Shown here: positions 2,628-38,373 of the stretch, piece by piece | How positions within the stretch are numbered: position 1 is the stretch's first letter | Layout of the letters: the number at the start of each line of letters is the position of its first letter | Source: Catajapyx aquilonaris | Taxonomy: Eukaryota | Direction: 5' to 3' | NCBI GenBank assembly: GCA_000934665.2 | Contig: JYFJ02003286.1 | Span: forward strand, 1 to 43,916 | DNA length: 43,916 bases | Program-made: the position numbers and the translations under genes | The notes under the pieces: generated by a model | Seen by the model: the letters and a program-made list of their open reading frames with translations, nothing else | The model's database searches: none | What the model was told of the DNA's origin: nothing

Positions 2628-5600
2628 GGCGGCTCCCATCACGCAGCACGTACGCTTCGATAATGCAAGTAAACCTAGGCGTGACGAAAGAACTGGGAAA
2701 AATTACCTAACAGGACGGATAAGGTGTTGGAGTACTTTAAACGAATGTATGTCGCGTGAAATATTCAATACTAGCGCACCCTAATGCCTTGTCAACCATG
2801 GCAGCAATCACCTGTACAGTACAATGTATTCATGCCAGGTTATGGTATGACTGACATAATGGATGCAGTGTCCACAACGTCACAAACCCATGTGACTCTT
2901 ACGATAAATGTACGCATCGACAATCAACTGCACAAAATAATATAAAGACTTATTGTGGCGAGTAACACTAATGTTACCGGTATGACTATATGGCCAATGG
3001 AACAAAACACTGTTGGTGTGTATAGTCAACATTTATATCAATTAATGGCCATCTTCCAGTGTCTTCCAGTTTATATACTCTTGCAAGATTATCACTTCAC
3101 AAGAAATGGTGACGACAAGCGACAGTTCAATTCACACCTATACCCTTACACATTAGCAATGTCATGCGAGATGCGACTATCAATCGAAACATCGTTCTTG
3201 TACCCCGAGGACCATAGCTGATATACTACCGCGACGTACTGGACCTCAGCTCCAAGCAAGGAGGGTCACACAAGATGGCTGACCTGACTATACTAGATGG
3301 ATTGACAAATAATCTGTATCGGTGATAGAAATGCGCAATGGATAATGAAACAACGGTACAATTTCGACAGCAACAAAGAACCATATTGAGACCAGACCCA
3401 GATTGATATGGGACATCTTCCAGACATTCGTGATGAAAATGCAAACACAAATTGCAAACTGCTTCCATTTTCCACTCCTGTCTACGAATACCGATTAAGA
3501 TAATAGAATACTATAATAATTATTGCAAATGACGTAAAGGCTCTCTCATACTGGGCTACCAAAATAAACAAGAGGCCTGATTGTGGGTTGGCTGGGTAAT
3601 TAGACAATCTGACCACCAGAGGTTATCGTCGTAGTGTATGTGTTCGGATAAGACGCCTTCCTGCAAGAGTTCAAGCAGAAAACAATATCTTCTTCTGCTT
3701 ATAACAATCTTCGTCGCAACTTGCGTCTTTTAACCAGTCCATTTGACCTGCACATGGACTTGTCTGATTTGTCCCGCTTGACCAAAGAAGCCATCAAGGA
3801 GCGCTGCAGCAGCCTGGAACTGTCCAGGAATGTGACAAGATGAATCAGTCTATTTCTACCTGTGCCGGAGACAACAACGACATGTCTTCTAGCAGGAATA
3901 TATGATCACTGTAAAGGGTATTTCAACTCAACAGTTGCGGCAAAGAGAATTATCTGGTGATAAAGAGTGTATATTGCATGTGCCGTCCTATATTACTTCC
4001 AAAGGTTGACGACATTATTTTATTTCGCGGTATAATAGCCTACTGTTAATGAATGACTGTCATCTTGCTGTCATTCTGTCAATGATGATGCCAATTGCAA
4101 TTTTTTTTTAAATCACAGTATAACCAAATGTCATAACCGCATAGAATCTATTAAACCGATAAATCTGCAACAATTAAAAAGGTATTAAAAGCAGGTGATT
4201 ATTCATTTTAAATCATTGCTGAATTTTTACTGTCAATTCTGGCAGATTATTTTGTATACGAATAATTGCAGTGGCATTTACACCACGTCCCCTATCAGTT
4301 CCTTAAATAGTCTGTGAGCCCCTGTGCATAACTTAGAGCCTCTAGACCAGCATGTCAGGGTTAATAATAATCACACACTGAATGCGCCTGTTAAATCTGG
4401 AAAAAAAAAGTGGTCTCAAAATTCCAAGCATGCCCAGACAGTGTAACATTTGTCGACTTAAAAAACATAACCATATAACACTGTATACATACCAACGGAC
4501 AATATTTAATGGCCAAATCCAAAGAAAAGTATGCAAAGTAACAATCTCCACGTAGGGTTTGGGAGGAACTGATGCACTGGCTACTGAAAATTAACTCAGT
4601 AGAGTGACAGCAATTAGTGAGAAACAGACGCAGCATTATGTGTGCCACTGCAGTTCAATCAGTAGTCTACTCGAGTACGTGACATCACTCATCCCCACAC
4701 ATTCATGTATCCATCCTGTATGATATACCTGAAACGAAGCAAACACTGCTGCGTATACGCAATCGTTAGCCAAACGAAGCCTATCAGTTCGACGCGTGGG
4801 GAAGCTAGACAATACTCACATGCGTCACATGAAGAGATACAAAAACAGCTTACGACGATTAGGGAGATGTTCAAGACCGACATGGGTAAGTTGAATCTAA
4901 CCCGGAATAATAATGGCAACCGTGGCAAACCAACCTAAAGGTACTATAGAATACCTACAAAATTATTTACACATCACCACAGGACGACATTCAATGCCCA
5001 AACCCAATGGCCAAAAGTGCACCGACAAAAGTGCCTACGACGCGACGCATCGATGGAATAGGTGATATAGAATAATCCCCGCCTATCTAATCCAAACATC
5101 TCCCATTATTCCAGATACCCGTGTTACAGGCGCTGAAAAATTTTCACTCATGTGTTTCAACCAGGATGTTCAGGAGAATCCGTGGTTTATAAAATGAAGG
5201 TGAGAATTTGCGCGAATATAATAGAAAACCTGGTGTGCCTGTTTGTTCGTGTCACGAGAGAAAGACAGTCATGTCCACACAGATTGGGCAGCCTTTTACC
5301 TATATGCACACTGCGCTATAGTAGTTACAGAGTAGTTATGTTTTCAAAATATTAAAAAAATTCGAGATTTTTTTTCTGCACAGAATAACTGCGAACTGTG
5401 CGACGAAAAGGATGATTTGGATATTAAAAATTATACTTGGCGACAAATGCAGTGATCGTAGCAGCCAAAAGTGATGTGGAGGTCCAGGTCAAACACTGTG
5501 GAGCGAGTGTCCGCCGAGACAAGGTGGTTGCCATCTCCAAATCGGGGGTCGCAAGTATGTCCTGGTGCGGACGAGGATTAACCGATGGCCTCATCACATA

Positions 5601-8600
5601 TAGCCCACCAGACGACTGGAAGCATGACAATCCGGTATAAGCAACATCATTCGCTAGGGATAAGGGAGAACGCAATCTTTTGACGTATTGCAATATGGAC
5701 CTTTAAAAAACAAAATAAAATTGGAGAACGGGTTAACCATCTCATTCACACTATAGCAACTGCCAGGATAGATGCTAATGGGGGTTGCTTATGTAATAAG
5801 CAGCCTTCTACGAATATGTGTGAAACAACCACCTTTACGTTTGGGAGGAATGGATTCAGTAGGCAACGAGACGCATCTTACCGCGCATCCTACTGGGGAA
5901 GTGGACCATACTAGTCGCCATGACAGATCGGAGAGTCTATACACATTAGAATAGTCCGAAATATTATTTATGAACCGGAGAACTGCGCAACTACAGTGCA
6001 CATTCCGCTGGAAATATAGAATTGAGATTGTCACTAATGATCATCTATGACAAAGGTGAGATCACTCATACCAATTGAAAAAAAACTCATACAGTATGTG
6101 AATGATTTATTTTAATATGTGACAATCACTTTATTAGGACTTTCGTAACATGAGGGTTGGAATAAAAATAATAGGCTTACTTGCTCTGATCCCCTCCCAC
6201 ATCAGTAATGACACTCCAGCAGGTACACACTACGAAAATCACAGTGAGATTAACTTGGAGCAGATACAATCGAGGATTACTACGATGGTTCTATAGGATA
6301 GTCTCAACAATAAGGCAATTATTGGCAGACGTACATTTTGCATTTTCCGAAAACTCAAGTAGTTGCTACAATTGACAAACTATTCCATAGCAGTTAATCC
6401 TTGCTCCATTTGTATGGCATTTTAGCCTGGTGAGCTGGTGGCAATGTTGAGAGAAAAGTACTTCTTTAGGAGGTAATTGTTGCTTTGTTGATCCGTGGTA
6501 AAACAGATGTGACAGGGGAATATTAAATGAAAGGGCTAAGATGCAGTACACACACGTAACAAAACATATCACTTACACAGCTGATGCTGGTATGGGCCGA
6601 ATGTATCAGTTCGACGCATGGGGAAGCTAGACAATGCTCTCAGTGCAAGCTAGGCAGATCCTCCGCCTACAGAAGGAAGGAGAAGGAATAATGTCGTACA
6701 TTCGCGTTTTATGGATGCACTTTGAGTATTGGTCCTGGAGAGTTATCGCCAAGTCAAAGTTAATGGCCAAGTACGGACGTGTAGGCAGTTGATGAAATGA
6801 GAACACCAATCAGTACAGTACAAATAGACAATGATGACTCATACCAATGAATGGCGAAAAATTGCGCCGAGGACAAAAAAAAAGAACCACATAATCCAAA
6901 CCACGACGAGTATAATATACAACGGATGTTGTAATCCATAATCACATCATGCTTCTTGGCAATAGTGGACCACAATAAAAATAATGATGGCAAACACTTT
7001 CCCCTCTTTTATTGACATCATTGACTTGGATATTTTAATATTCACATATGCAATACTCCGCAAAACACAATATCAATAGAAAGCGGGGTAAGTTGAATCT
7101 AACCCGGAATAAGAATGGCAACCGTGGAAAACCAACCTAAAGGTACTATAGTATACCTACGTTATTATTTCAACATCGCCACAGGACGCACGACATTCAA
7201 TGTCCAAACCCAACTATAGGAGTGACCGCACGAGGCACGAGGCACAAACACTTCTCAGAAAATCATTTCCAATATAAGTAACACCGGCACATTTGAGTCA
7301 ATTTCAAAATATCCAGTTCGATATTGTTCATTCACCACATACATTATTGCCATTACCTGAAAATCCAACTTATTGCAGCCAATTCTATATGACAGAGGCG
7401 ACATTACCGTTATACATTGCTAGTACCTGAGAAGCATACGGAATACACCAAGTGGCATCGTTCAAGAAGGTAACTGAACACCAAGTGAACATGAGGAGAA
7501 AACCCGAGGACCGCATCAGACTATACTCAACAAAAAGGGGCGGCCAGATTGCGAGTTGGCGGGTGAAAAATTATCATCATTGCCAATGCAGGCTTGCTTC
7601 ATGTCAGAATTATTAATATAGAGAACGGCTCCATCGACGCCAACCTTCACTCAGATAAAGTAGCCACGATCAACCAAAACCATTGTTCTTGTGCTGGAAC
7701 TGCAGGCGGACCAAGTAACAACAGCCATAAACCACGACTTTCGACTCCATATTCTCACATCTTGTTTTATCGGACTAGAGAGGAGTAGTCTCTTGAAGCA
7801 GTTTGGTCAGGGAGATCATCCATCCAGAAGCAGAAGAAGAAGCCGGGAGCTGACCGGCGACTCTGATTGTCCATCACTGACAAACTGAAACACATTCGCA
7901 TGGTACCACCACCACCAGGTCATGACTTCCACTGACTTCCAAAATATTTCCCAATCTGGTTTTTGGAGTCGTGAAATTCGGCCCGTAGGTATGTACATTG
8001 GTCAGTTACTGTGATAACTGGCTGTAATCAGGAAATAAGGAGTATTTGTGTGTCCTTACATGTGCCGAGCATATGTCAGTACTGCTAAATCCCACTGCCC
8101 AGATGGGAATGTCTTTAGCAGACACCTCTAGACAGAGTGGATGTGAGTTTATTTTTAAATATGACAATCACTTTGTTATGACTGTTGTAACATAAGTGTG
8201 GCGTTTTACAAATCGCGTAAAATATTAAATATAGAGTAAATTAAGTGGCACTAAAAAACACATCCCAGAGGCTGCAGTTCTATACAAACAGGATTTTGGT
8301 TAGATTAGGCTCTCTTGCTCTGACCTCATTCCTGATGATGGAATACCTCACACATCGAAAATCAGTCACAGCAAGAGCTAGCTCTTGGTCACAGCAATAC
8401 GGCAGGCCGACTCGGCGCCAGCCAAAGTGATGTGGAGGTCCAGGTCAAACAGGCGCTGTGGAGCGAGTGCCCGCCGAGACAAGGTGGTTGCCATCTCCAA
8501 ATCGGGGGTCGCAAGTATGTCCTGGTGCGGACGAGGATTAACCGCTGGCCACATCACATATAGCCCACCAGGCGACGATGGAAGCATGACAATCCGGTAT

Positions 8601-11600
8601 ATTGAGTATGAATATTTATTTACTGGAGGTTTCTCTCATCAACCATTGCCTTGTTTACACATTATTAATGGCGTCGTAATATATTAAATACCCCAACATA
8701 ACGAAAACGCCCGGACTAACGAAGATGTCCCCAGACGAAAATCAGGTTCCAACAATCTAATTATAGTGAGTACACTACAAATGTGTGTTGCTTGTTATTA
8801 CGAGTATATGGAATCATATGTATTCACATACGGGCACGACGCATCGAGGACTGATTACTCCGATGGTTCTATAGGAAAGCCTCAACAATAAGGCAATTAT
8901 TGACAGATGTACCATTTTGAAGAAGTAGTTTCTATAATTGGCAAACTATTCCATGGCAGTTAATCCTTGCTCCATCTGTATGGCATTTTAGCCTGGTGAG
9001 TTTCGTATACATGGCACTAGAGAGAAGATCTCGTTTGCATATAGATTGGCCCGCTCTTCTTTATTCTATTTATCGTACCACTTACATCATCTAAGCGGAG
9101 GAAAATACGCAACACAAAAATGGAATCTGCTCATTCGGGAGATCCAGACAGACGTGGGGCTTGTTCGTGTCAAGTTTGGACCCCGATTGTGCTACTGGTG
9201 ACGGTGACAGGGAAGTTCAAAGGGGCGGTACCATTTAAAATTCAAACCTCGCATGAAGAAGGAAAAGTCACGCGACAAAATAACAATGTTTAGAGAAAAA
9301 ATACTACTTTTATACAATTATTTAAATATCGCCAAAGGACGACATTCAATGCCCAAACCCAATGGCCAAAAGTGCACCAGCAAATAAAATGGCCTACGAC
9401 GCATCGACGGAATAGGTGATATAGAATAATCCCCTCCCATCTAATCCAAACAGCTCTCATTATTCCAGGTACCTGTGTTACAGATGATACAAAATTTTCA
9501 CTCGTGTGTCTCAACCAGGATGTTCTGGAGAATCGTGGTTTATAAAATGATGGCGAGAATTCGCGTGAATAGAATAATATTCGCATTGCTCCACTTTAAA
9601 ACTCGTGTATTGCGCACGATGGACACGTCACCACTGGTCAAGATCACGCCGAACACACATAAAATAGTCCCTCGGGCAGATACTTCAAAACCAGAATAAA
9701 TCCAGTACTGTTACGTACGTCTCGAAAAGATGGTCCCAAAGATGAGACATCGCATCACGACAGCACCATGCAAGACATCGTACACAAGACATTTGCGACT
9801 GAGAAGATGGGATTTTGAAGACATGTGTGAAATAAAATCCAAGTTTTTTTTAAAAATAGGATGGTGACACGGTCCATTGTTGGACGGACTTAAAAGCACA
9901 TGTGCTCATTTTCATCACCAGGATCCACACCAGCCCTTCTCAGGGCTACCAAATAAATCAGTTGAGGAATGTGCCAAGAATAGTGGGGAACATTCTGGCT
10001 ATACATAGCACAAATACCCTTTGTGCCTGACCCATTTTGACCCAGTCACATCCCATGGCATGTGTGACCCTATTTTTTTCCAGGCTTGACCCTCAAATTT
10101 TCAGCGGGCTGCACGTATGCCACTACTTCAACCTACGATTGACAAGGAATCCTCCGAAAAATCACCGTTTGCAAGTCTACTGATAAATATACTGCATATT
10201 CTAAGGTATGGCTGGTGCGGGGTTATGGATGGGGAGCCTTTATCTCCACTCTTTTCACTTTTTTAAATCATCCCCAGTAGACCTTTGTATACCTTTGTTT
10301 ATATAGTATTAATGGCGTCGTATATATTAAGGATTACTCAGATAGTTCAACAAAAGTCTGTGAGTTGCACATGCCTTTGTGGAGAGTTTTATGAAGTGAT
10401 GAATACTCTGTTTTTGACCGGTTTGTTTTTCCCTTCAGCTAGAAGTGCAGCTGATTGTAGTTGGAACTGAGCACAAATTGCAGGTTGCTTGATCACGTGA
10501 CGTGACGTGCTATGACCACGCAAGAATACGTATGCGACTGAGAAGATGGGTTTGAAGGTGAAAACAAAGCATAACGAATTACTTGCCAGAAGTGGACTCT
10601 AAATTCCCTGTTATTACCTGCATGGTACACCTGGACATGCATGGCGTTTCACTAAGAGAATCCCTGGTTGTACGACCACGAACAAGATTCAAGAGGACCA
10701 GTGCAGTGGCCCAATACGTATGGCTGAAACATGTCTCAGGTTACAGTACACAAAGTCACCCACCGACCATGGAGCATTCTACTCGTAGCTGATCCTACAT
10801 CGGATGACGAGATTGGAACCCTGGACCCTGGCATGTAATAGCATGATGAAAAGGAGTACTGTACCTCTGATGTTCTCACAATTTTGTTTTATCCTTAAAA
10901 TTTTTATACGTCGATGATCTGGTATTTGAAGGTAACGAATGATTGGAATGATTGCCACAAAATATGCATATTACGAGCCAGATAGGCGATAGCGCAGAGA
11001 GCCATCAATGGACGTGCAAAAATGTTGCAAGAATACAGTCATTACATCTCTTGGTATATACCATTACAAAGTATTGACCTTTCGCATCAATTATCCGACA
11101 AGTCTAAGTGTATCCTGTAGAATTCCCTAGGACTAGAAAATACTCGTCACAAATTTGTGCTTGAAATGACCAAACAAGAGACATTAATAATATTGTAACC
11201 GTCCAAAACAGCAAGGACTAACCTACGAATACACAGAACGACGCATAACTCTCTAAGAACACATTTCATTGAAGGCAATTATGCACAAAATGCATGTGTC
11301 ATAATTAAACGAGAGAGGTTTTATGACTATGCATCATAATAGAGCTTGCTTCAAATGCTTACCAACAATGGTCACACGATCACGACAACGGAGTCAAGAT
11401 CACGCCGGACACACATAAAATAGTCCTAATGATAAAAAGTTGTATCTGGGATAAAATGCAAGAGAGTTATAATGCACCAAGTAACTTTCATCTGCTACAC
11501 GTAACTTATTGTGAAATAATATTTATTGCCAGTGTGACATGTATTTCCTTGCGTATTACAGTCATTACTGAATATGATCATATTTTGATTCGATACACAT

Positions 11601-14259
11601 TTCGTCAAAACATATTTCTAAGAGCAAATAATTTGCATGAATAACAGAAATGACATCTCTTGATCAACATATGCAATATTGTTCTTTGATATCTGATTTT
11701 ATCCGACTAATAATAATAAGCCAGCAGGAATCGCCTTTGGATCAGATAACATTCCCCGAGAACCTGTCCTTGGAATTACCAAGAAGACACCGATTAAAAC
11801 CATCCAAAACATGACTGCATGAACAATCTTCATTGTACGACACAAAGAGGAAAATCACTAAGGCCCTGCGACGATCAACGGAAACATCGTTCTTCGACAA
11901 TCGCAAACCATCAGCTAATACTCACATCGCGACGTACTGTACAGTACAATACCTCTGGACACATTTTGTTCGATCAGAAGGGATCTCTGATCGTATTCGT
12001 AGTGACGCATGGCGCCAGGGTTTTATTTCCATGGCCATTACCTGCTCAATTACGACAATTACTTGCTCAATTTATTCATCTCGGGTGACACATGACATGC
12101 TCTTTCAGGAGTATTGTTGTAGCAACCAGCTCTTTGCACTTCTCTCCTGAGCACACCATGTAGCATCTAAGGCGCAAACAGAAATTAACAGTACCTTCAG
12201 ACTGGAAGCCAACTCAAACACATGTGATCATGATCTGCAACGCCTTGCTGTATACATGCAAGGTTACTTACTAATCACTGAAAAGTTTGACTTTGTCGTT
12301 CTTGGGAACTTCACTCAGAATGACTTTTACAACTACATACGAATTGTGTCCAAAGCCCTCTGCACTGGACTTCCAAGTTTCATTTGAAACAATGCAGTTT
12401 TCAGGCGCGGACAGAGACTTACAATTCACACTAAAATTGACCAGTACGTCAAGTCGGCATTGTCACACCTTCCCCTCTCTGTGTGTCATCCGAATGCCCA
12501 GAAAATTTTGGTGTCAAGATTTGTTAGTATGCGCAGTATGCAAGGTGCAATACCATACCTATAGGCTAAGCATACATAGGAAACAGTGAAGCTAATATGA
12601 GGAGGAGACATATCCAGCAAACAGAGCGACCAAGAGGACTACACTGGCACGTAGGACACACCAAACTGTACAAACACATTATTCACTGAAGACAATATCA
12701 CCATATCATGCACAACATTATAACACCTTCCAAAACAGTGGTCCGAAATCCATTTTGACCAGCTGGAAACAACAGGCGACATGAATATTCTTGAGCTATA
12801 AACGCTCTCGCACAATATAGAGAGTATGATAGCAATGCAGTGATAAAACACGAAGGACGACAACTAGGATGACAAAAGTGCCTTTGGCATGACACACTTT
12901 TAGTGGCATTCAGCATCCTACTCGAGTACTTGGCATCACTCCATACCCACAAACATGTATCCCATCCTGTATGATACATGAGACGATCATGTACGAAGAA
13001 AACACTTCAGCAAAAAACACAACAGGAAGAACTAGTACCTGAGAAGCACACAAAGCCGTACACCCGTGTCATTCAAGAAGGTAACTGACCAACAAGACAA
13101 CATTAGGATCAAGCCCGATGATAAAAGTGAATAAAAATAGAAGCGGCACAATAAAAATCACTTTTAATGGGGAGTAGCGCCTATCATTACAGCATCACTT
13201 AGCTAATTGCGTGACTTAAATAAGTCAAAAAAAATAATCTCAATCTCAGCTTCTGTGTTCGGCCTGTCCCCATACTGTATAATTCACCTGTTTTTTCAGA
13301 TAACGACAGGGCACACTATTATTGCACATAGTGTTTTATGTTATGTTAATGAACATTACATACTAAATGGTCGTACTTGAGTTATGGTTGTTGCGCATAC
13401 TGGCACACCGCGTCTATCGTTGTCACTTCACATAATGTGAGCAATACGGTCAGGGGATATGTGCTACAATCAATACCTGTGCATGGTTGTCAAAATAATT
13501 ATCTCCCATGCCAATAATATGTAATTCCAGCTGTACATTTGATATAACTTAATTACAAAAAAAAATTAAGGAGATATAATATGAAAGTTACAATATAAGG
13601 GACATTATTTCCAGTAATGAAGTGGTCTCATAATAATGCCCAGCCACCAGTGTTACATCAATTCTATGTTCTCCTGTGTGATTATTTGTGGTGTCTCTGA
13701 TACCGCTTCATTGTGGGACACTACGCCACCACAGATGCCATTAAACAGACATATGATTAAGACGACGACTGTAATGGATACGGATTGTCGGTGAGGAAAG
13801 ACAGGCGGGGATATACTAACCACTATACTACCGAGGAAAGACTGACAACCGAATTCGGTTTATAGGTTCCGATAGTTTCTAAAGCATTATGCTTTAACAT
13901 CTTGTTTAATCAGACAAGAGATGGGTCATTGGTCTGGGTTCTATAATCATGCGGAATGGGGTGTAAACAACTCCTCTGTTGAATTGCCGGGGAAACTGTC
14001 CTTTCCTTCTCTGAAGGCCGAGGAGGGTCAAATCGCCCTCTCCCCATGCTGCCAACTCCAGCCCCTCAGTGTTATTACATTTCTACGTGGTGTCTGTACT
14101 TTGTTCAGTGTTTTGCACTCATATTGGTTGCATACTTTGTTCCATTTCCGAGTTTATCCACTGTTGCCTTGGTTGCGAGACTGTTGGTGTAATTATAGAT
14201 GATGATGACGTTTTGTTGTAGCTGGCAAAAGTTCGTCAGAATCAAGAAATCGCACTTGC

Positions 14260-14930
14260 ATGGCATAGCATCTACTCTTTTGCCTGGTGGGAGGACTGCT
14301 CATGCAGCATTCAAACTTCCTCTAAATTTAGCTATACAGGAAAATGCAACATGCAACATCAGCAAGGGTACCGCGGGGTGGGACAACTTTTGAGTCAGTG
14401 CAGGTTAATCGTTTGGGATGAGTGCACCATGTCCCACAAAGCAGCTTTTGAAGCTCTGGACATGACACTGCAGGATATCCGGGAAAGCAAAAAGATTATA
14501 TGGGTGGGAGTAACTTTGGTTTTGGCTGGGGACTTCAGACAGACATTGCCTGTTGTTCCACAAGGCACACGAGCCGATGAGATAAAACCTTGCCTCAAGT
14601 CTTCTTTATCTCTTGACTGGTGTATTATAATTCCATCTCTCTACGAACATGAGGGCCTCTCTGCTTCGTGATTACTCCTCAGAGGAATTTGCACGTGACA
14701 TGTTAAAATTAGGAAATGGCCAATTTAGAACCGATGCCCTAGTGTTGACATGGGATTGATCGGTACAAAGGTGTCCTCTGTCGCTGAATTGAAATTTAAG
14801 GTCGTTCCCAATCTTTGCCTCAACTACCAGAGAGACAGTCGTTGGTTGGGTGAGAGAGCAATTTTAGCTCCGAAAAACAACGCCGTCAATCTTATCAACG
14901 CACAATTCCTCAACCTGGTCCTTATTCCCA
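14260..14930 (+). pseudogene. Decayed PIF1-type helicase fragment from a Helitron Rep-Hel protein
   Basis: GIASTLLPGGRTAHAAFKLPL, LIVWDECTMSHKAAFEALDMTLQDI, VLAGDFRQTLPVV and WLGERAILAPKNNAVNLIN lie in different frames. These are characteristic Helitron/PIF1 SF1 helicase motifs. Confidence 0.9.
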
Positions 14931-17900
14931 CGTAGGTGGTCCAGAGTGTAAAATTATGCATGGAAATTTAATATAGTGAATAAACTCGTCCTAGAGGGAA
15001 AATGCACCATATACTAATCGTGATGACAGATCAAAAATATCGTTGTGAATATGCACAAAATCCTAATGTCATAATTAAACAAAGCGTGTTTAATGACTAC
15101 GCGTCAAAATAATATATTCCAAGATGATTCAGATGTAAGGCATCGATAACATCGACCAATATGTGGGATTAAACCTATACGTTCAGAGTGTCCGCGAAGG
15201 GCAGTTTTCAAAGAGTCGCCTTCGAACTGTAAAACACATATACTAGACTAGTTCAAATAAATGGGAAAGTACTAAGTCGTCATCATTTAGCCAATTACGC
15301 GATGTAAATGGGTCAAATATATATTTAAAATCACCGATTCGGTCACATTTTATCTATTCAGCACGCTCCTAAACTGTGATTCACCCATTTGTTTACGTGT
15401 TCTGACGAGAGAATGTCCACAAGGTGCTCTGGAAATATACCTAACGACTGAGTATACTCACTGGCTGAGCTTATGCTTGGACATAGTGCACGTTTTGCCC
15501 AACACCTTAGACAACACCTAATGAGAACAATGAGGCAACTGCTAGAGTTTGGGAGGAGCGGATGTAAGCCAAAGAGACACATCGTATTGGGGAAACGGAC
15601 CATACTACTCGCCATGAAAGATCGAGTCATGTGATCACTTAAGAGAACTTGTACCAGTACCCGGAGTATAGGCATGTAATTCCTCGCGCGTTTCAGAGTG
15701 ACTTCATGTATACTTGAGAATATTTTATCAGCAACAAAAATGAGAAGTAAATGGAACTTTTCACTCCAGAAGACTGCTATCATATCTGAAAACAAGCAAG
15801 TGAGGTGTATCGTGTATGAACACTGCAAAGTTTCGTGTAATAAAGGTGAGGGGGATCAGGTGACATGAATATTCTTGACCTACTGTATAAACGCTCCCGC
15901 ACACCGCACGATGTATGGCAATGGTGCTGATAAAACACGAAGGACGACACACAGGACGTCAAAAGTGACTGGACACACTTTTAGTGGCATATTGGAGGTG
16001 CACTTGACAGAGAACATAACCAAAAACAGAGGAGAGCGAGACCAATAAGCGAGAAACAGCAGTGATGCAGCTTAACGTGGGTCACGGGCAATATTCCGTC
16101 AGAATTCTACTCGAATACTTGACGTCACTGATACCCACAAACATGTATATCCATCCTGCATGATACATGAGACGATCATGTACGAAGAAGACACTTCATA
16201 TGCTTGTTGCGTGTACTGGGATAGAGAATCTATTGCTGAAAAATCCACAAAGACAACAATGAATTATGAGACATCACTACAGCACTATGAAGTACAGTAT
16301 ATGAATCAATCAGCTCCATGCATTGTCGTCAATATAATTATTACAGTATCACCCACGCCAATAAAATGCAATTCGAGCTGTAAATATTATATAATTACAA
16401 AAATGTTAAGCTAGTGATGACATGGTATATGAAGGTAACAATATAACGAAAACATATGATTGCCAGAAATAAAGTGGCCTCATCATTCCAGCCATGTCCA
16501 ACCAGCAGTGTGACATTTTACTTACTAAAAACAACCATGCACTGCACACACCACGATATTTAATACCCAAATTAACAATATTGTCACTGTAAAAAAATTA
16601 CGTACAATGACAACAAAAGTCCTCCACGAAAACATACGGCAAAAAAATGTGGGAAAGATGGAGACAGAGAGAAGAGAGGAAAGACTGGTGTCTCTCTATG
16701 TGTGTCTCCTAACGACGAAATATCACCACTCTCAATCTGGCAAACCTATTTCCATTTCATTACACTCGTTGCTGGCATTTGGCTAAACTTATGATCTATA
16801 TTCCCCATAGCAAGGTGGTAAGTTCTGAGATATAATATCGGTGTATCAGTTACAGCAGCTAATCAGGAAATGAGGATACATTTTTTTTTAATGTATGGAA
16901 AGATTCCATCTGAGGTACGTATAATTGGGATGTTCAGTTGTTACACAGAGAGACACAAGGTACTTAATATGATCCCGCCGAGTCGAAAGGAGTCAAAATA
17001 GGTGCGCCATCCACACAGACAAGTCTTCGCCAGCTCAGGATAAAGAACTCCGACCTAATAATCGTGCTGAATCAGAGGAATTTCATCTTCACGTCTCAAA
17101 ACAAGAAACGACATGCAAAATCAATTGTGAAAACCATGAATGGATCCTGCGACAAACTCCAAAAACAGGTCACCCATGGTTATACTGGTCAATAACCAGG
17201 ACACGCAGACTTCTTACAAAACCATCACCAATACGTACTTGAGTCATTCACAAATATTAGTACACATTGTATCAATTGATGGACTTCCGATGCAGCATAT
17301 ATAAGAAAAACTGAAGGCATCTTCCGAGACAATGGTTCGCATTCTAGCCCAAATGGAAGAACTCTCTTTTTCTTAGCATTATTCATTGTTAAGCCACATA
17401 GATGACACTTTCATCATTTTGACTATTTTGTCCTCCACACCATCTTGATGAGAAGGCTGAACAGACTACGGAGGTCTTACTACCCTTACTTTTTTACTGA
17501 AGGGAATGTTTTTTTTGCTCTTATTTTAATTTCGTTCAAATACAAAATACATGCATAGTGTAAGTCACAATTGTTGTGCATACTGGCATACCAGATGTAT
17601 GTTCATTGCTGGACATAATGTGAGCATTAATGATGGACAATCTGTGCCATAATAATTGACTCATGTATGGCTTCAACATATCTCGTAGCTCTACGACGTC
17701 AATAACACTTGGATAACAATAATTGGAGCTATAATTTATTATGGTTTGAAGGTAACAATGTACGGAACACATTGAATGATACCAGAAACAAATGGGACAA
17801 GTATGCGAATTGCTTGCCTAAACGAACTTCTCCTAGACCTATGCTTCACAGAGGAGTTCTCGTCCTGTCCCATATGCATTAAGATGAACGCTAATTATAA

Positions 17901-20900
17901 CTGCATCGTTCGCCGTTTGCAGATTGACTCTTTATTAATATACTGCTGTATATTGAGAATGATAAAGACATATTTCAAACGTGACCACGTGGTTTACGCC
18001 TGGATTTGTAGATCTCATATTTCGCTTCCTGAACAGGACACGATATAAATCTACAGTGCGTTTCGTTCTATTATTTGTGGACAACCACTAGGGACATAAC
18101 TAAGCCTATACATGTGGACCACCAACAGGAACACAAACTCTGGGACATAATAACGTATAGGGCCAGACGGCCAGAGATTGAGCAGCAAGACCTTGGAATC
18201 ACGGGAATAGTACAAACCCATTCTTCACAGGCTAGCTGTTAATGTCATGATCTGGGACGAGACGAAAATGAAGAAATGACCAACAAATGCGGCCTGTAGA
18301 AAATTTTAACAGTGTCAATCTGACTGAATTTGAAAAAAGCTGTCAAGAGGAGAGTCCGGACAGAACCAGTGGATGTTCCGTCACACAGCTATACTACTAC
18401 AGACTATAACCATAGGCTATATCGCAACTTTCTTACTTAATTTTTAAAAAAACTAACGTCCTCTCTGGGATCTTAAGACAAGACAGTGATATCAAAAGAA
18501 AAGACACCATTAAGTCCACTCTGATTGGGAGTAGCCCTTACCTCTGTGAGATTATTATCAATATGTCACAGCATTTTGCCAAGAGTAGTAGTTAACAGCC
18601 AAAAGTGTAATAAAAACTACATAATTAATATACTAAGAAAGTGTATAAGATATGGTTGTTACGAACACCGGCAGACCCTTCAATGGGCATCGCTGGATAT
18701 AATGTGAGCAATGACGACAAGGAACAACAAACCCAGCATGTTGAAACAACGAACGACAACAGTGTTATTGCCAGAACACCTTTTGCACATCTTGCCACAA
18801 GTAGGTCTATACCATTAACAGTGAATTGAAAGTTTAAGGAGGACGATCCGGCATAGCTTAACAGGATGATTTTTGTTATACAAAATATAATTGATAATAA
18901 TTGATATAATAAAGTAGAGCGACACCAATATATTAATGACAAACTGATGCAGTAAATAGAGTAGAGAAGTGATACTGTACTTTTTTGGTGTATTTTGTAT
19001 AACAAAATTATAAGTTTATTTCTATTGAAAATTACTATCACTGCATTTATCAAGTCGAGTAGTTAATTAACTGGACGTAGCCATAAGTATGAGGTCTATG
19101 GGTGTGACCGCAGGAGGCAAACACTTCTCCCAAAATCATTTCCAATTACGACGTAGATATACCAGTACTGTATTTTAGTCAATTACAAGAAGTGGCACAC
19201 ATTGAATTTTTTAAAACCCAAATTATGACTTACATTCCTAAGTGCAATAATTGATTAGCCTGTACTCAAGTATGGACATCAACATATCTCGCAGCTCTAC
19301 GACGCCAATAAACAATATTATGATAACAATTGGAGCTATAGTTCCACTCCGATTATAAACGTGTTCATAAGCCGGTGATATGGTTTTGAAGGTAACCACA
19401 AGGGACACATGGAATGCTACCAGAAATCAATTGGACGTGTACGCGAATTGCTTGCCAAACGACTTTCTACCAGGCATGTACACTTTGACTATGAAGATCA
19501 AAGTGCACCTTTCGCCGTTCTCAGAGCCATATATTTTATTATAATATAAATACATCTTTCAACATGACCAAGTCGTTTATTCTTGGATTTTCAGACCTCA
19601 TCTTTCGCTTCCTATAATACTGATCACGATCTATACGCTACGTTTGGTTCCATTATTTGTGGACAACCACTAGGAACATAACTATGCCTGTGTGTGGCCC
19701 ATCGAAATTGAGACGAAGCGACAACATATAGGGCCAGAGGAACAAAGATTTAGCAGCCATGGAATCATGGCAAAAGCACTAAAGAGAAGGCCGCACAGTA
19801 ATGAGCATTACTATGTAAAAACATATAGTTAAGTAATAAATTGTTGCGCAGAACAAATCACATTCACAATAAATGATGGGATGTACCAGACATGGAAGAA
19901 TCACAAATAATATAACTTACTGTATTTTAAAATATGCGGGGTATATGGCATGATGGTATATACCGCTATGATTCTTGAAACCAGACATCAGTGAAAGGAT
20001 ATTGAATACTGAATACCGAATACTGAACACTGAATGCTACTGTCAAATAATAAGAAAAAAAAATTGTCTCATAATTCCAGCCATGCCCAGCCAGTGTGAC
20101 ATTTATTTAAACAATCATACACACTGTTCACACCAAATTGAAATGACGTACAATGGTGATAATAGTAATTCAAGAAAAAATGAGACGCTGCTACAGGAAG
20201 ACACACAAAGGTGGTCTCTCTTTGTCTGTATTCCAACGACAAAATCACTATCCAAAATCTGGTTTAACCCAATGAATCCGCAGGGTTCTTCATGTTTGCA
20301 ATAAAGTAACGCATACATTTAAATATATTAATGATTTAAAAATGGCATATTATTAAGCAAATAAAACTGGAGAGTAGGTTTACCGTCATCACACTATATT
20401 GCAACAGCCAGTATGTTAACGGCCTTTATGTAAGCAGCCTTCTACGAAAATATGTGTAGCAACAACCTCTGACGGACGCAGGCAACGAGACATCATATTG
20501 CGGGAATGGACCACACTAGTAGCCATGACAGATCACAGATTAGAACAGTTCGAAACTTTATTTCTGCACAGGAGAACTGCGGTACTGGAATTGGCCGCCT
20601 ACACCGACAAAAATAAGATTACGGATTACTCCTCAACCGGTAATTTATATAATGTGTGCGCGCAAGCACATTTCAATGAAGACAATATTGCTGTGAAAAT
20701 GCACAAAACATATCTCTTAATAATAAAACGTGATGTGTATTACCCATACAACCCAAAGGAATCCAAAAGTGCTATTTATCATCTAACCAGACTAAAGACC
20801 TTGTGGCCATCACATCACCTCATTCATTGAATGACGTTACACATTCTAGACAGTCCTCCAAGATAACAAAGTGACATACAAGACACAGCACCCTGCGTCA

Positions 20901-23900
20901 AGAGTCCTACTCGACCATGCCAGGTATGGGTTAGATCCAAGCTGACAGCAGTGAAATGATATTGAAATAATATTCGTCACCTCCACTAAGAAGCATGATC
21001 AACAAATACCATGAGTTGCGACACATCCATGTAGAAGCCACCAGAGTGAACGAGTCTCTGAATCCGAAGACGAAGATAAAATAGTAGACAGGGAAGGTGA
21101 GAAGTTACTTTCAACTGCTACACGTAACTTAATAATTTGCGAAATAATATTTATTGACAGGGGGGCTCTCCTGTCATCTACAGTACAAGGGAACCCGTGG
21201 AGAAACCCAGTAAAGTGCATCGTTCGCCGTTCGCAGATTGGGTCTTTATTAATATAAAGATATCTCTCCAACATGACTGGCTTATTCCTGGATTTTCAGA
21301 CGTCATATTTCGCTTCCTACTGCTGACCACGATCTACGCTGTTTTGTTTTATTATTTGTGGACAACTACTAGGTAACATCATAACTGACACAAATAAGAA
21401 CGACTTGGAAAACAACGAATAAGGCCAGAGGACCAAAGATTGAGAAGCAAGACGCTTTTCCTTAATGCCTTGGAATCATGGAAATAGCACCAATCCAGAA
21501 TCCACTCTAGGAAGTCGAAGAGGAAAGGGCATCGAACTATATGCACTACGCAAGAAGTCGATTCGAAGGGTGGGAAAATATAACGTGCCTTCATTGGGGT
21601 AGATGGATAGCAGTAGAAAAATGATGATATGAAACCGCAACCATTACAGTACAAAGAGACAATGCCTCATATTACCAATGCAATGGCTAAAAATTGCGCC
21701 GAGAAAAAAAGGAAGGAAGACGCTAAGCCACTAGTCAATCTCAAAAATCCAAAACACGACTAGTATGGTTATCCTGTAACCCCTAAACAGCACCGACATT
21801 GTAAGACATTGTTGCAAAATAACTCGCATCTGTCTCCTATCCCAAATACCTGCGTCAGACTTGGGTGGCCCTATAGACGAAGCTGCCGTGAATTTTGAAA
21901 TGTTCTCACTTAGCATTTAACTGAAATTGGTTTCATGTGGCATAAAATTCAGCAGAGTTACAAGGATACGACAATGAATGGCTGTTAAATTATTTTTCAG
22001 CTGCGTCACCTATAAAACGGCTATAACAGACCTCGGTTATAATAACACTTTTTTTTCCACGTCCATAGTCACTATCCATTGTTACTATGGATCTATGGTT
22101 ACATAATATTGCTACAACAATGTAATATGATAAACTCATAAAGGGTGGTGACCATGTGCAGTGATGACGCATGCTGACAGAAATTACTCTCAGTCAGGAG
22201 CAGCTATATCATACCAGAAGACTGCAAGAACTGCGCCATCTACATGCAAACACTCGATCGCTGGATCCAACACAGCGGAGGACATCTTATGATGCACGTA
22301 GACGTCATGTTGAATCACAGAAATATTTCATTTTTACATGTCAGAACAATCATTTTTAATTAAATGGAGCAAAATCTTAATGAATTTTTTGAGACAAGCT
22401 CCGAAAAACAGCTGAATGATTCACATGCTGCTAATTAACGGTTATCATTGTTAACATTACGTCCAGATATGGCTGTGTGTGCTTAACACCATAGCTTAAG
22501 TACATTTATTTCTTATGCTAAGAGCATGACATTTAATTCCTTACATGAAAGACATTGGGGTTAACAAAGGAAAGCTGGGGATGAACTTTCCCTGACCACA
22601 TAAACATTAACCAGGTAAGTCACTCGTGGCATAAATAATAACACATTTCACAGGACAATAAGTACTAATAACTCCTACTTTCATTTACGTATGTCCACAT
22701 TAAAACGTTAAAAGTCTGCCAAACATAGAGAGACAGGATTGAGAACTCTTATTACTCCTGCTGAATCAGATAAGACTGTTTCATAATCAAGTGAACGACC
22801 ATAAAATTTTACAATAAATGGCACAAACCGACATGGGTGATGAGACACACTCCAGCAACATTATTCCGTTCACGTCTTGGCTGTTTTGTTACCTGGTAGA
22901 ATAATAAATAGTGGGATACAATGTAACCTGTTAAGTATCAGAAACATTCCAGCAGGATAACGTCTTATACCTGCTACGACTGACTCACCAGGAGAAGAGT
23001 GGATCATGCAGAAAACCTGGTTCAGCTTATGCGACTGATGTGTCAAAAACAGTAATCCATTCACTCCTGGACAAACACAGATGATCAGGAAGAATGTTAA
23101 TTCACAGCACAGTGTTTCATTACAAGGCGGTCAAGAATTCACACAATAATAATAATGCCACGCACAAGCAGCAATAATGAGTCACAATATGACATTCACA
23201 TACACAGTACCACGTTTAATGCGATCCTGCCGAGGAGAAATGTGTAAAGCGCATCAGAATGATGAACGGCGACAGAATACTCCTGCTGGTAGTTACTCCC
23301 TTCTTTCAGCCCGACCACAGTCTCCTATTCAAGACCAGGTACAGTACGCGTACAAACGGTACGTCTAATCCTATTGCCACATGGTCAGGTCAAACATACA
23401 CATAAATGAACATTCACATTGCGAAATGCAACACCATGGTGTGAATTACAGTAAAAAGCAGTGCAAGAACCACGAGGACTGGGAGAATATTGCTTCCAGC
23501 TCTTCCCAATGAAGATATAGATTATAGACGAATACAAATTGCAAATTGCAACATGCCAGGTGATGGCCAACATCAACACCAGAGTGAAATTACAACTGCC
23601 GAAGAGAAAGTGAGTTCATATCACTATAAACACTCGCTTTGAATCACTGAAGTGTCATCATCACAATGTAAGAACAACCAATATTCAGAATAAATGGTGC
23701 AAAACCGACACGGTTGTTGAGAAACGCTCCAATGGAACGGATAATATTTAATGCCTAAATTCAAAGACGATAAAAAGTCATTGAGGTTGAGGTGTGACAT
23801 TCATTGAGATTATACGACTTTGAGTAAGTCCATTGCAAAATGCGATACAAATTGCATTAACTTTCAGTCCTAAGTGCAGAAATGTGACAACACAATAATT

Positions 23901-24700
23901 ACTGCTCATGAGGTATATAATAGGGCGCTTTCACTTTTAAAGCCTCAATGTGTTTATACTAACGGCATCTTCCAAACCAACCAGGATTCATTTGCACCAG
24001 CTAGAAGGACCGGCCTTCATAATTTAGTAAGAAGTAATTCTTTATCGGTAACCACAAATACCACTATTGAAGACATAACAATTCGTAACGTTCGCCACAA
24101 CAACAATGATCCAAACTAATATCCAACCTAAGACAAGTTTGTGGTGTGTATGTCATAACTCATTATTATCACAAAAGACAAAGACATCAGAACTGCAGAA
24201 AGTAAGCTGTGGATCCAATAATCTCACTGCGTATTAATAAAGTCATCTTGTACCAATTACAGCAGTATCACATGCTAACACCACCAGGTCATGCCGCTAG
24301 TTTTTATTGTAGTTACAATTATAGAGAGTGCAGCGTACACGTTTGATGGAATTGGATGTTTGTTACTCGGTAAAAATAAGAACCTAACTTCCATCTAATG
24401 CTGTGCATATTATTTCGCATCTCACCATCGCCAACCCGTGCTAGATCATCACAATATTCCAGACGGAATATGCATGATGAAGTGAGATATTATTTTAATC
24501 ATGTCATGAATATTAGGCATGTCACAGTAGCACACAGATAATTCAGACGACCCATTTGGAAGACCTACTCTTCCGCTTCCTGGCACTATGTCTTCTTGAA
24601 CTAGCCCGGCCAACTGACTGTAGTCAGTAATATAGAAAGTGTAATACGTTTTTCAGGTGGTCAGCCCACCTCCTTGGAAGGACTGTAGTGTGGAGGAATG

Positions 24701-25140
24701 GAGGAAGCTGATGGAAGGATAATTGCACACGTCAGGGATATGGCTCCTAATGGAGCGCGGTCCGTTGTGATCAGGTGCAGCGATATACAGACGTACTCGC
24801 CCTTGTCGTCTCCTACTTTCATGTTCTGCAGCGTCTTGGACTGAAAGAGCTTTGGGTACTATTCGGTAATGCCGCAAACCGACGCGACGGTACATCCCAG
24901 TTCACGGCATTGCGAAATCACTGGAAGAAAAGAAGGATTTACAGGCTGCGACACAGTATCTTTCTTTTCTTCGAGGGGAAGAAAGTCAGCATGGCATATC
25001 CTGAGGCGACCAGTGCTTTCCTGAAGTTGGCTACTGCAAGTGAAGAGCAGCCTCGAGATGTCCTACAAACTCTCGAGAGATTCACAGTGCTTATGTACGA
25101 CACGAAGAGTAACTCCTGGAGTACAGACGAGGCACGTGTG
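24701..25140 (+). pseudogene. Frameshifted FEN1/XPG-like (PIN + H3TH) nuclease fragment, probably transposon-borne
   Basis: Reading across frameshifts: EEADGRIIAH...VVIRCSD/TDV...ELWVLFG...RRYIPVHGIAKSL...FTGCDTVSFFSSRGRKSAW...LERFTVLMYD...DEAR. The EAD, DxD and GCD motifs match 5'-nuclease families. Confidence 0.7.
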
Positions 25141-27857
25141 GTCAATTACATCATCTTCTACACTGCATTACAGGGACTACATGATTGTTTAGAATTAACT
25201 GGCAAAATAAGTAGAAAATTGTGTACAACCTAGCTGTGAGGTGTCATCACAGTTGCAGTCGGAATATACTGTGATGACTGATTTACATTCGATGTTCATA
25301 CTGGATCGTGCAGCAAAACTACTAGGTCGTTCTGCTCATAGCATGTGGCAAGCAATGTACATTTATTAGACGAGAAGCAGGAGGAGGCTTATGCGACTGA
25401 TGTGCAGTCAAATCCAGCACTTCATTCACTCCTAGACACATGTGAGGAAGAATGTTATTAAGCAGCATAGTGCTGTTTGCTAAAAAGGAGCCAAGAATTC
25501 ACTTTTTTTAAAAACTACCATGCCACAAGGAGCAATAGTGAGTCACAATATAAAATTCCTCTTATGAGACACACTATCCTTTTTCATAGCCAACCTAATT
25601 ACTACCAGGATAATTTTATATGCACATACACAGTACCACGCTGAGTCAAAATGTACACCATGATGATCGAGGCAGATCACGGAATGCGCCTGCTGAGCAA
25701 TAAGATTTCAATTCAGAGCCCTGGTCGTCTTCCCTTCTTTCAGCTCAACTACAGCCTGCAATACATTTGCTGGATCATGTGACGTAACAAGGCCAGTTGG
25801 TCTGAAGAGATGGTTACAAAATGGTAGATAACAGGACATAACGTGGTCAATCATCAGGAAGCAATCAGTTAATACTAATAGGTCTATTTACTCTAACAGT
25901 GCACCAGGAAGGCAACTGTCACAAAGACAAGTATAAATTGCGAATGACACATAATCATAATTGATCGTAATGGATCACAGTAGAGATCACAGATGTACAA
26001 GAGGCGGCCAGATTCTTATTATGCCATGGCATCTGAGACCATTCCAACATCACAAAATACGTAGAAGCCGGCACAAGAAGTGCTCTACCACATGTTATTT
26101 TCATGACCATTACAATTCAAAAACATTTACTTGAACCTCGAAGACTGTGGAGAAAAATATACTCCTGAAAGATATCTACAGTAGCCATACTTCGGACAAA
26201 TACTCCAGAACCATATGTCCACCAACCGCCAGAGAAGGACATGATGACACCTTATATCACCAGCAGCAAGTCATCAGCTTCCACCTACTATGTATACCCA
26301 TGACCCCACCAAGGTCGACAATATCTGAAAAACGCAAAGTGACTCCAGGTCTGAGCATGAATTTCGACAAGGAAAATGACGAACATCGTTATACAACCCA
26401 GGATAGCAGACCAGGTATACAGCTAACTATGTGACAGCCATTCCAACAGACGCTAACATTCATTGATGAGATGTGGAACCCTGGACCCTCACGACCAGCT
26501 TGATGAAAAGGAGTGGCCCTTGAGGATCCCCTCCCCCCCATATATTTTTACAAGATGGGAGATATGACTGTAACGTGCCTTAAAGTACCGGTACTATTCC
26601 AAAGACAGTGCGTTGTTGATATCTATGCAAAAAAAAGGACGTTATTAGTTGGTTGACACATGTTGGTTACACTCAACATGACTATTTGGACTATTGCTGT
26701 AGTTTGACTCCCCTTGTACTCAAGCCTAATCGATTGTTACCATGTATAGATCACCTTGCCAACCATTGTTGAAACTATGTTCTCAACAATCTATAACACT
26801 GTGTACAGCAAATGCTGTTGCCACAGGGTCAGGTAAAAGGAACATTATTAACTGCCAAATGCAATACCATGGTGTGAATCCTGCTAAGCGCTCAAAGCCT
26901 ACAGTCTGCGAAACTATGAAGCTTAAATTCTAAGGTGGAGAAGGACATATATCTCAATAACTTTTGAGATTCCTGGAGGAGACATGTCCAGCACACACTA
27001 CATGAGATTCCAAATATGAATGCTGAATAGTGACTACTCGTCTATATTATAGCAGTAATGGAGAACATGACAAGGAGACCACAGATAGCGACCAACAGGG
27101 CTACCCTGGGACATAGGCGAATGTGCCATCTCCTACCCACTCTTGTAATGTTCATCCTTCTTACATTGTCGTAAAGGTTAATAACGACAACACACATACT
27201 CATAGTGAAGAGACCAATGTCGCGCAGGTGGAGGACACCGCTTGAACAACAGAATAATTCTAACGATAACTATGATGGATTCAAATAATAAAAGGCCTGT
27301 ATTCGGCTAATATTGCGCTGAATAGAAGCATTACCAGACATTATAGGGCCCCTGAAATGAGAGACATGTGCAGCCTTGAGATATTCGGAACACAAGCTAT
27401 ACAGCGGCATACAATAACTAATTACATCAAGTTAATCACCCTGACAAGCCTAACGTAGTGAAGTCTCCGCCGAGTGAAGTAACCAATATTGTTTGAGGTT
27501 AACGTAACAATCATTTTTCGCCTCAAACAATACTCTGGGCTGACTGTAGCCTGCACTGTACGGCAGTAACCTTGAGAATAATTTCTCACTAAAAAATAAT
27601 ATCAATGTAGCACCCAGTAATGTCGCCCAGTGCATTTCAATTCATCATACGACGACAGCTATTAAATCAATGTAAAACATTGGAAGAATAATCGGGCCAT
27701 CAGCTTCTCATAGTCAAAAATATGATGAAATTTACGAACAGATTGTTCTTTCGTCAGAATATTAAAAAGAAGAAGAAAATAAAATTCGATCAGAACAGAC
27801 CCAGACAACCCAAACCCAAGCCCTGTTTTTACCAGCCACACAGAGAGAGGGCAGGCT

Positions 27858-28158
27858 TTTTATATGTACTCTTCTGATAGTCCTGCCCCAGGTCCTGCCC
27901 CCGGGGCCGCCCGTGGACCGAGGCAGGGGCGGGATCGGAGCCCGAAAAAAAAGAACGTTCCAGAAACAGACGCCATTTTGAAGAGAGAGAGAGAGTGAGA
28001 GAGAAAAATCCGTGACGTCACCGATTTACACGGCACAACAGTGCGCCGCGCGTACACACGCTACTGGCCAATGTGTTGACACCATCCAATCAGAAGCCGT
28101 AAGCAATCGCACAACTTCACCGTGTAATAACCCGAGGTTTTACACTGTGCGCATGCGC
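27858..28158 (-). promoter_or_regulatory. Motif-dense Pol II promoter facing leftwards
   Basis: NRF1-type TGCGCATGCGC 28148-28158; CCAAT at ~28069 and ~28086; perfect CRE GTGACGTCAC 28012-28021; (CT)n tract; YY1-type AAAATGGCG 27971-27979; GC box 27926-27933; TATAAAA on the minus strand 27858-27864; locally CpG-rich. Confidence 0.6.
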
Positions 28159-28162
28159 GTGA

Positions 28163-28392
28163 ATGTACAGGGTGTATAAAAAAACCCGCGAAATGTACAG
28201 GGTGTGACAAAAGGTTGCTTCAAGAACACCATGGTAGTACTGTACAGGGTGTGACAAAAGGTTGCTTCAAGAACACCATGGTAGTACTGTACAGGGTGTG
28301 ACAAAAGGTTGCTTCATGAACGCCATGTAGTACTGTACAGGGTGTGACAAAAGGATGCTTCAAGAACACCATGTAGTACTGTACAAGGTGTG
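28163..28392. repeat. Minisatellite, 46-47-bp unit, 4 full copies (starts 28194, 28241, 28288, 28334) plus partial flanking units
   Basis: Unit TGTACAGGGTGTGACAAAAGGTTGCTTCAAGAACACCATG(G)TAGTAC, read directly. Confidence 0.95.
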
Positions 28393-28564
28393 CCATACAT
28401 ATTAACCACCGGGACAGCATGTGTACTACACTGCAAACTCACAGTGCATTTGACCCCGTACGGTTTTATTCGCACCAGATCAAAACGATTGAATTAACTC
28501 AACTGCGCCGCACGTTTATGAATAAAAAATTTGCCTGTAATGAGAATGCACACGCAATAAGATC

Positions 28565-34971: not shown

Positions 34972-35271
34972 GATTGTTAGCAAAATCAGGAAAAAAAAAG
35001 TCACATACACATAACCGCTTGTTCCCAATCAGTATGAACAATGAAGATATGTAACAATATATGGAAGTGTAAACAAACGGAGCCAACCTATGGCGTAATA
35101 ATTATTACGCCATAGGTTGGCTCTTAAGATGTATGACTTTGCAAATATTTGCACCGTAGGATTTCCCGTACTTTGGACGTGTAAATAAACTGCCAGTTGA
35201 TACAATGCACATTGCACATGCCGTACTGTGTATAAGAAGAGGCGATGCATTTCCTCGGCACTTATCCAACC

Positions 35272-38207: not shown

Positions 38208-38373
38208 AATAAGAGGAAAAACATTCCCTTCAGTGACAAAAAAGACACCTATGGTACAGCTTAAATCAATTGGGGAAGGTCTTACGTGCGCATGCCTTGT
38301 TTCAGTACTTTCATTCCGTCATGTAGGTCTTACTACCCTTTTTTTCACTGAAGGGAATGTTTTTGCTCTTATT
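38208..38373. mobile_element. ~166-bp MITE with ~30-bp TIRs; a related right end occurs at ~17472-17524
   Basis: AATAAGAGGAAAAACATTCCCTTCAGTGA ... TCACTGAAGGGAATGTTTTTGCTCTTATT. The second copy reads AGGTCTTACTACCCTT...ACTGAAGGGAATGTTTTTTTTGCTCTTATT. Confidence 0.7.

Follow-up and report, generated by a model that had tools for sequence, protein, structure and literature searches.

Results

A promoter-like motif cluster faces a 25-kb stretch without protein genes

The window analyzed here is a 43,916-bp stretch of DNA from Catajapyx aquilonaris (contig JYFJ02003286.1, assembly GCA_000934665.2). Its central part, positions 2800–27830, is a gene-free stretch with an A-rich plus strand, filled in part with decayed repeats that all share one orientation. 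At its right end lies a promoter-like motif cluster on the minus strand (27857–28158), preceded on the same strand by an ABCA-type ABC transporter gene; at its left end lie pieces of a lineage-restricted protein gene. Composition, Pfam scans and repeat pairs together mark 2800–27830 as the candidate body of a minus-strand transcript, possibly a precursor of PIWI-interacting RNAs (piRNAs).

The cluster reads along the minus strand, from 28158 to 27857, in an upstream-to-TATA order: GCGCATGCGC at 28158–28149, two ATTGG motifs at 28090–28086 and 28072–28068, TGACGTCA at 28020–28013, a CT run at about 28005–27981, CAAAATGGCG at 27980–27971, two GC boxes at 27933–27926 and 27912–27907, and TATAAA at 27864–27859. 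Among 1745 sliding windows of 300 bp, only those starting at 27726–28001 contain at least four of six motif types, the maximum elsewhere being three; the six types were picked after inspection of the site, so this count describes uniqueness within the window and not a probability. The cluster also coincides with the CpG maximum (18–19 CpG per 200 bp, observed/expected ratio 1.2–1.45, compared with 0.74 in the 25-kb region and 0.11 in the adjoining tandem repeat at 28201–28400). Motif uniqueness and the CpG peak bear out, as a sequence feature, the motif-dense, left-facing promoter that had been proposed from a sequence-only reading of this DNA. The TATA box at 27864–27859 predicts a transcription start near 27835, and the CT run with CAAAATGGCG, near 28000–27971, is an alternative candidate start zone. 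A 38-codon open reading frame (ORF) at 27976–27860 on the minus strand begins at CAAAATGGCG, an ideal start context for arthropods, and ends inside the TATA box; it lacks homologue evidence and may be a chance frame or, if transcription begins near 28000, an upstream ORF.

Downstream of the cluster, protein-coding potential is nearly absent. We scanned 150 stop-to-stop frames of at least 55 aa between 2946 and 27874 and added 257 frames of 36–54 aa, giving 407 ORFs in total. The sole Pfam pass among them was a PIF1-type helicase on the plus strand, and no Pfam family was found on the minus strand. The earlier claim that about 25 kb hold no credible protein gene is thus supported, the helicase remnant being the lone ORF to pass.

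This remnant (14199–14668, plus strand) is split over two frames, with PF05970 matches at 14199–14390 and 14222–14668 (the better of the two at E 1.4e-22, the other at 9e-8). Its best match in the PDB is Helraiser (7lcc_A, E 1.6e-7), and cellular PIF1 reaches only about 1e-3. Because Helraiser outranks cellular PIF1, the label of a Helitron remnant stands, in agreement with the plus-strand Helitron fragment recognized at the outset; a PIF1-type helicase closest to Helitron transposases is present, as a remnant only. A six-frame reading of 11000–14001, with X at stops, returned no Rep domain, no reverse transcriptase, integrase, gag or env family, and no other match.

The second transposable-element fragment that had been proposed to lie antisense to the transcript, a PIN nuclease at 24.7–25.1 kb, was not confirmed. 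The frame in question, 160 codons on the plus strand (24751–25230), yielded no PIN-like domain by Pfam, PDB or sequence search: it has no Pfam match even at E up to 10, no PDB match better than E 0.24 and no sequence relatives. Its language-model features resemble those of unnamed arthropod clusters annotated as 'hypothetical protein' (score 0.96), with a weak lead to an XRN_M-bearing cluster (0.78). An antisense placement of coding fragments, relative to the predicted transcript, thus has a single verified case, the helicase remnant.

Two further plus-strand features are fainter. A DUF229-like frame at 3652–3840 (E 2.4e-4, 20.4 bits against a Pfam cutoff of 25) is possibly a chance match, being one of about 400 ORFs scanned. 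No Rfam family reached its gathering score in the stretch and no tRNA was found; permissive Rfam searching returned a chance-level riboswitch match and a sub-threshold histone 3' stem-loop-like element at 9927–9972 (plus strand, RF00032, 28.7 bits with a gathering score of 34, E 1.8e-4). The latter is a full-length match to the model, with a 6-bp stem and a 4-nt loop followed by ACCAAA, and no histone ORF lies upstream of it. The coding remnants of the stretch are few and old, and the four oriented features on the plus strand (helicase, unnamed frame, weak DUF229 match, sub-threshold stem-loop) are of unequal quality and too few to carry weight.

Repeats in the stretch are entirely co-oriented

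Self-BLAST of the 25-kb stretch revealed 35 direct and 0 inverted pairs at 65–94% identity. Five composition-preserving shuffles of the stretch produced no pair of either kind, and the five inverted pairs in the whole window all lie outside it. The pairs collapse into 21 families comprising 52 intervals, with 31 co-orientation relations; lenient chaining of colinear pairs leaves 18 events, all 18 co-oriented (p 8e-6). A promoter-like cluster facing a gene-free, co-oriented stretch had been the core of the sequence-only reading. That layout is real and, with 35 direct and no inverted pairs, stronger than was stated, the total co-orientation of the repeats being a new element beyond what had been noticed.

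Repeats cover about 30% of the stretch, leaving 70% without a detectable duplicate. Profiles built from 12 families found four weak extra matches, all on the plus strand and all inside the stretch, and no match outside it within the window.

Part of this repeat content has the form of local duplication. A colinear direct duplication, resolved by self-BLAST and chaining, joins 11280–13658 and 15050–16516 on the plus strand and flanks the helicase remnant. Three decayed direct copies follow on the same strand at 17521–18220, 19264–19782 and 21212–21497, spaced about 1.6–1.7 kb apart, with related pieces at 13336–13658 and 16298–16553. Between 4366 and 9600 the plus strand carries a mosaic of short direct repeat families that are 85–94% identical; examples are 4884–5223/7086–7213/9311–9576, 5462–5639/8419–8601 and 6275–6434/8853–9000. 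The segment 4366–6886 is colinear with 20019–21718. The families at 4884–6434 reappear at 7086–9576 in changed order and are thus not colinear. A piece of about 50 bp at 17472–17525 recurs outside the stretch at 38325–38373; at least some units are therefore dispersed repeats. Taken with the non-colinear pairs, this recurrence indicates that a single duplication series does not account for everything.

Strand composition changes at the borders of the stretch

On the plus strand of 2800–28160, A makes up 33.0%, T 26.3%, C 21.0% and G 19.8% of the bases. The AT skew is +0.113 inside this interval, as opposed to a mean of +0.009 in the 27 windows outside. It is positive in 45 of 50 500-bp windows inside (binomial p 4e-9) and in 14 of 27 outside, a difference in window counts with p 4e-4 by Fisher's test. 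GC skew is −0.03 inside, with 35 of 50 windows negative, and averages about 0 outside. Of the plus strand that had been described as A/C-rich, the A-richness is firmly upheld, and the excess of C over G is marginal. The 4-mers in excess in the stretch are ACAA, GACA, CAAA, AACA and CACA.

The asymmetry forms a domain: the cumulative A-minus-T count rises from 55 at 3 kb to 1723 at 28 kb and then stays flat across the ABCA-type gene to 39 kb, so that the skewed interval spans from the left-hand gene pieces at about 2–3 kb to the promoter-like cluster. The AT skew amounts to 0.15 in repeats and 0.095 in sequence without a detectable internal duplicate. The helicase remnant shows a skew opposite to that of the surrounding stretch.

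An ABCA-type gene ends just upstream of the cluster

The last coding exon of the ABCA-type gene lies at 28565–28822 on the minus strand, with its stop codon TGA at 28567–28565, and is separated from the preceding exon by a 74-nt intron (28896–28823). ORFs at 28904–29581 and 29479–30465 carry ABC_tran Pfam matches corresponding to the nucleotide-binding domain, and the best solved relatives of the product are ABCA3, ABCA7 and ABCA1 (second half). Upstream of the recognized ABC domain, long minus-strand open frames in 30500–35600 (among them 33447–34061, 35029–35592 and 30954–31577) gave no Pfam or PDB match. The gene has an AATAAA poly(A) signal at 28465–28470 (minus strand), and the promoter-like cluster begins about 300 bp past this signal on the same strand.

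Exactly between the poly(A) signal and the cluster sits a 47-bp tandem repeat of about 4.3–5 copies (28194–28427), delineated by Tandem Repeats Finder and a repeat family search. Each unit contains TGTACA and CCATGG palindromes and a GTCACAC word, and the array is strongly CpG-depleted beside the CpG peak. The array may serve as an enhancer or insulator. We considered the cluster and the 47-bp repeats as a solo long terminal repeat (LTR) or as the 5' end of a long interspersed nuclear element (LINE) and provisionally set both aside, as a second copy is absent from the window; the downstream minus strand, T-rich and without ORFs, further disfavors them.

The left boundary carries partial paralogous copies

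The region left of the stretch had been read as a single gene at 2627–964. HMMER, alignment and tblastn instead reveal two paralogous copies, both partial, of a roughly 160-aa lineage-restricted protein, at 970–1398 and 2342–2488 on the minus strand. A full HMMER search with the frame at 2093–2605 against 1.84 billion representatives gave two matches, of which one is informative, the 162-aa protein P0002; the other, P0001, is a 1400-aa tandem-repeat protein and was judged uninformative. The same frame has no Pfam family and no PDB match, and language-model features likewise gave it no relative. P0002 aligns to 1398–970 through residues 5–144 (E 2e-21) and to 2488–2342 through residues 112–162 (E 2e-11). 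The C-terminal piece therefore lies upstream of the N-terminal piece on the minus strand, a reversed order that does not make one colinear gene. The open frame 2605–2093 is start-less, and the homologue's N-terminal two thirds have no counterpart in it. Motifs of the protein include WPGG, DPFFIH, GIKLKV and VCYFC. A TATCGATA/TATA-like stretch occurs near 1660, and the window shows no intact host gene.

Other elements of the window

An apparently young LINE occupies 39502–42708 on the plus strand, with open frames of 698 and 368 aa, a reverse-transcriptase domain and a weak zf-RVT match; purines are in extreme excess on its sense strand (GC skew about +0.45, AT skew +0.22). Just upstream of the ABCA-type gene, a direct repeat pair of about 570 bp (36282–36852/38360–38932) is 93–96% identical at a spacing of 2.08 kb and represents either a tandem duplication or a small element with LTR-like ends. 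Nested inverted repeats at 493–904 and 42825–43531, with arms of 81–146 nt that are 91–96% complementary, resemble miniature inverted-repeat transposable elements or foldback elements.

Discussion

A one-strand piRNA source is tentatively favored

We tentatively favor a non-coding minus-strand unit of the piRNA-precursor kind, driven by its own promoter or by read-through, while regarding it as far from established by the layout of the locus. In this model, the cluster at 27857–28158 would be a genuine RNA polymerase II (Pol II) promoter whose minus-strand transcription runs leftwards into roughly 25 kb of decayed and uniformly oriented repeats that hold no protein gene. Read-through from the same-strand ABCA-type gene, which ends 400–700 bp upstream, may add to this promoter or replace it. 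Transcription would yield a long non-coding precursor rich in U, antisense to the Helitron helicase remnant and to the A-rich strand of the repeats, and this RNA would be cut into piRNAs. The 25-kb layout fits such a source, and a long first intron or a passive duplicated spacer fits it almost as well.

Several observations weigh against a piRNA source. The first group concerns the repeats and other remnants. The 35:0 count holds colinear blocks, and its 21 repeat families are of undefined intrinsic polarity. Local direct duplication explains part of this co-orientation, and because such duplication yields direct copies by nature, that part is uninformative on selection for insertion orientation. 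Only one transposable-element coding remnant is verified. Reverse transcriptase, integrase, gag, env and viral families are all missing from the 407 ORFs, and the apparently intact LINE at 39.5–42.7 kb has left no fragment in the 25-kb stretch.

The second group concerns transcription itself. Long Pol II units in mammals are depleted of poly(A) hexamers and enriched in GGTRAG, the U1 motif. Here, the minus strand has 38 AATAAA/ATTAAA hexamers where 21.7 ± 4.5 are expected from its own composition, and 5 GGTRAG where 9 are expected, a pattern opposite to that expected for a long processive Pol II unit. Substitutions polarized by majority revealed no significant strand asymmetry among 199 changes in four multi-copy families, a comparison of low power (T>C 6.4%, A>G 4.5%, p 0.19).

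A long first intron and a passive spacer as alternatives

The same promoter-like cluster, with its motifs and CpG peak, would serve equally well as the start of a minus-strand protein gene that has a short first exon at about 27.8–28.0 kb and splices out the following 25 kb. Repeat co-orientation and an excess of T over A on the transcribed strand would then be the usual by-products of residence in a transcription unit. Mammalian transcribed strands carry more T than A, and the sign of the skew observed here matches. A candidate donor, CTG/GTAAAA, is present at about 27833, and a candidate acceptor, TTACAG/A, at about 2556, before the start-less frame 2605–2093; both were read from the sequence. 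However, the minus-strand coding sequence closest to the stretch consists of two incomplete copies whose order does not fit a single gene. Since these pieces are non-colinear and a TATCGATA/TATA-like stretch sits near 1660, the host gene would have to lie beyond the window. The last intron of the neighboring ABCA-type gene measures just 74 nt, poly(A) hexamers are enriched and not depleted on the minus strand, and the complete co-orientation of the repeats exceeds the moderate bias familiar from introns. A long first intron is a serious contender that we nevertheless consider somewhat unlikely.

Alternatively, the stretch may be a passive spacer, that is, DNA untranscribed or only incidentally transcribed that expanded as an A-rich seed containing a Helitron was repeatedly duplicated nearby, as direct tandem or segmental copies. 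The promoter-like cluster would then be an orphan or what remains of a lost gene, or it would drive just a short unrecognized transcript. The colinear blocks 11280–13658/15050–16516 and 4366–6886/20019–21718 and the copies spaced by about 1.65 kb at 17.5–21.5 kb are what such growth would leave. The absence of matches to the 12 family profiles elsewhere in the window, the stronger skew of repeats than of unique sequence, the scarce and old coding remnants, and the lack of the U1/poly(A) pattern typical of long transcription units are further points in its favor. Yet many pairs are non-colinear, forming 18 separate chains; the skew persists where no duplicate is detectable; and the recurrence of 17472–17525 at 38325–38373 shows that some units are dispersed repeats. 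A spacer also leaves the CpG-rich six-motif cluster with its TATA box unexplained. On balance, we regard a passive spacer as unlikely.

A more far-reaching version of the piRNA explanation, which we consider improbable, is a source of hybrid type. The locus would be a compact piRNA source placed immediately behind the poly(A) site of a housekeeping-style gene, yet with its own CpG-rich TATA promoter, and grown largely by local direct duplication of Helitron-derived DNA. Equally speculative is its corollary that the cluster enlarges by duplication, each unit being kept antisense to the precursor, and that retroviral capture is not the builder. A structural or regulatory RNA without piRNA processing, the 'architectural' long non-coding RNA of the sequence-only reading, is very unlikely: the promoter-like cluster, the absence of genes and the lack of a known Rfam family at gathering score accommodate it, nothing speaks for it specifically, and its body would consist of decayed repeats with 30% internal duplication and many minus-strand poly(A) hexamers.

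If small RNAs confirm the piRNA source that we favor, the locus would be a sequence-defined one-strand source with a clearly delimited promoter in a non-model arthropod, and questions of promoter dissection and cluster evolution could then be addressed beyond flies and mosquitoes. Should its transcripts prove to be simply spliced, or absent, the locus is an ordinary long intron or spacer. In that case, complete co-orientation and strand skew can stem from local direct duplication and are, alone, no signature of a piRNA cluster.

Comparison with known systems

Long introns can carry transposons with an orientation bias, which is moderate. The C. aquilonaris stretch shares with them an upstream promoter, here promoter-like, the lack of coding sequence, one-way repeats and T over A on the transcribed strand. 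It differs in that its co-orientation is total, the putative sense strand shows no depletion of poly(A) hexamers, and the flanking exons are candidates only. Helitron-associated and other locally amplified repeat arrays also occur. The helicase remnant between direct duplicated blocks and the single orientation of all copies recall them, whereas the stretch has no single period, no Rep domain in 11000–14001, and 70% of its length without a duplicate.

Among piRNA sources, uni-strand clusters are marked by abundant small RNAs of 23–31 nt with a 1U bias that come from one genomic strand. The flamenco-type clusters of Drosophila possess a Pol II promoter of their own together with antisense Gypsy remnants, and the sections of van Lopik et al. 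2023 (PMC10643416) drawn on here present the antisense Gypsy bias as the distinguishing property of flam-like loci. The locus described here resembles them in having a candidate Pol II promoter of canonical appearance at one end, a gene-free body, uniform repeats and a verified transposable-element remnant antisense to the predicted transcript. Unlike flam-like loci, it contains no Gypsy/LTR or env remnants in the 407 ORFs and so lacks the Gypsy/LTR enrichment described in those sections (PMC10643416). It measures about 25 kb only, its remnants are old and partly local duplicates, and its promoter motifs differ from the Ci/Inr elements that the same sections give for flam-like loci (PMC10643416).

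Core piRNA clusters of mosquitoes, in the part of the preprint used here (bioRxiv 10.1101/2022.08.22.504762), are mostly one-stranded and promoterless, begin immediately behind a gene, and show an enrichment of antisense non-retroviral viral remnants. In contrast, the C. aquilonaris stretch has a promoter-like cluster and no viral Pfam domain. Its position is that of the mosquito read-through clusters: it is intergenic and starts no more than a few hundred bases past the 3' end of a same-strand gene. The ABCA-type stop lies at 28565 and AATAAA at 28470–28465 (minus strand), and the skewed repeat body begins by about 27.8 kb. piRNAs in both soma and germline are ancestral in arthropods, according to the portion of a comparative study considered here (bioRxiv 10.1101/185694). 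If it is a piRNA source, the C. aquilonaris locus would combine a promoter and uniformly oriented repeats, as in flamenco-type clusters, with the placement of the mosquito clusters behind a gene.

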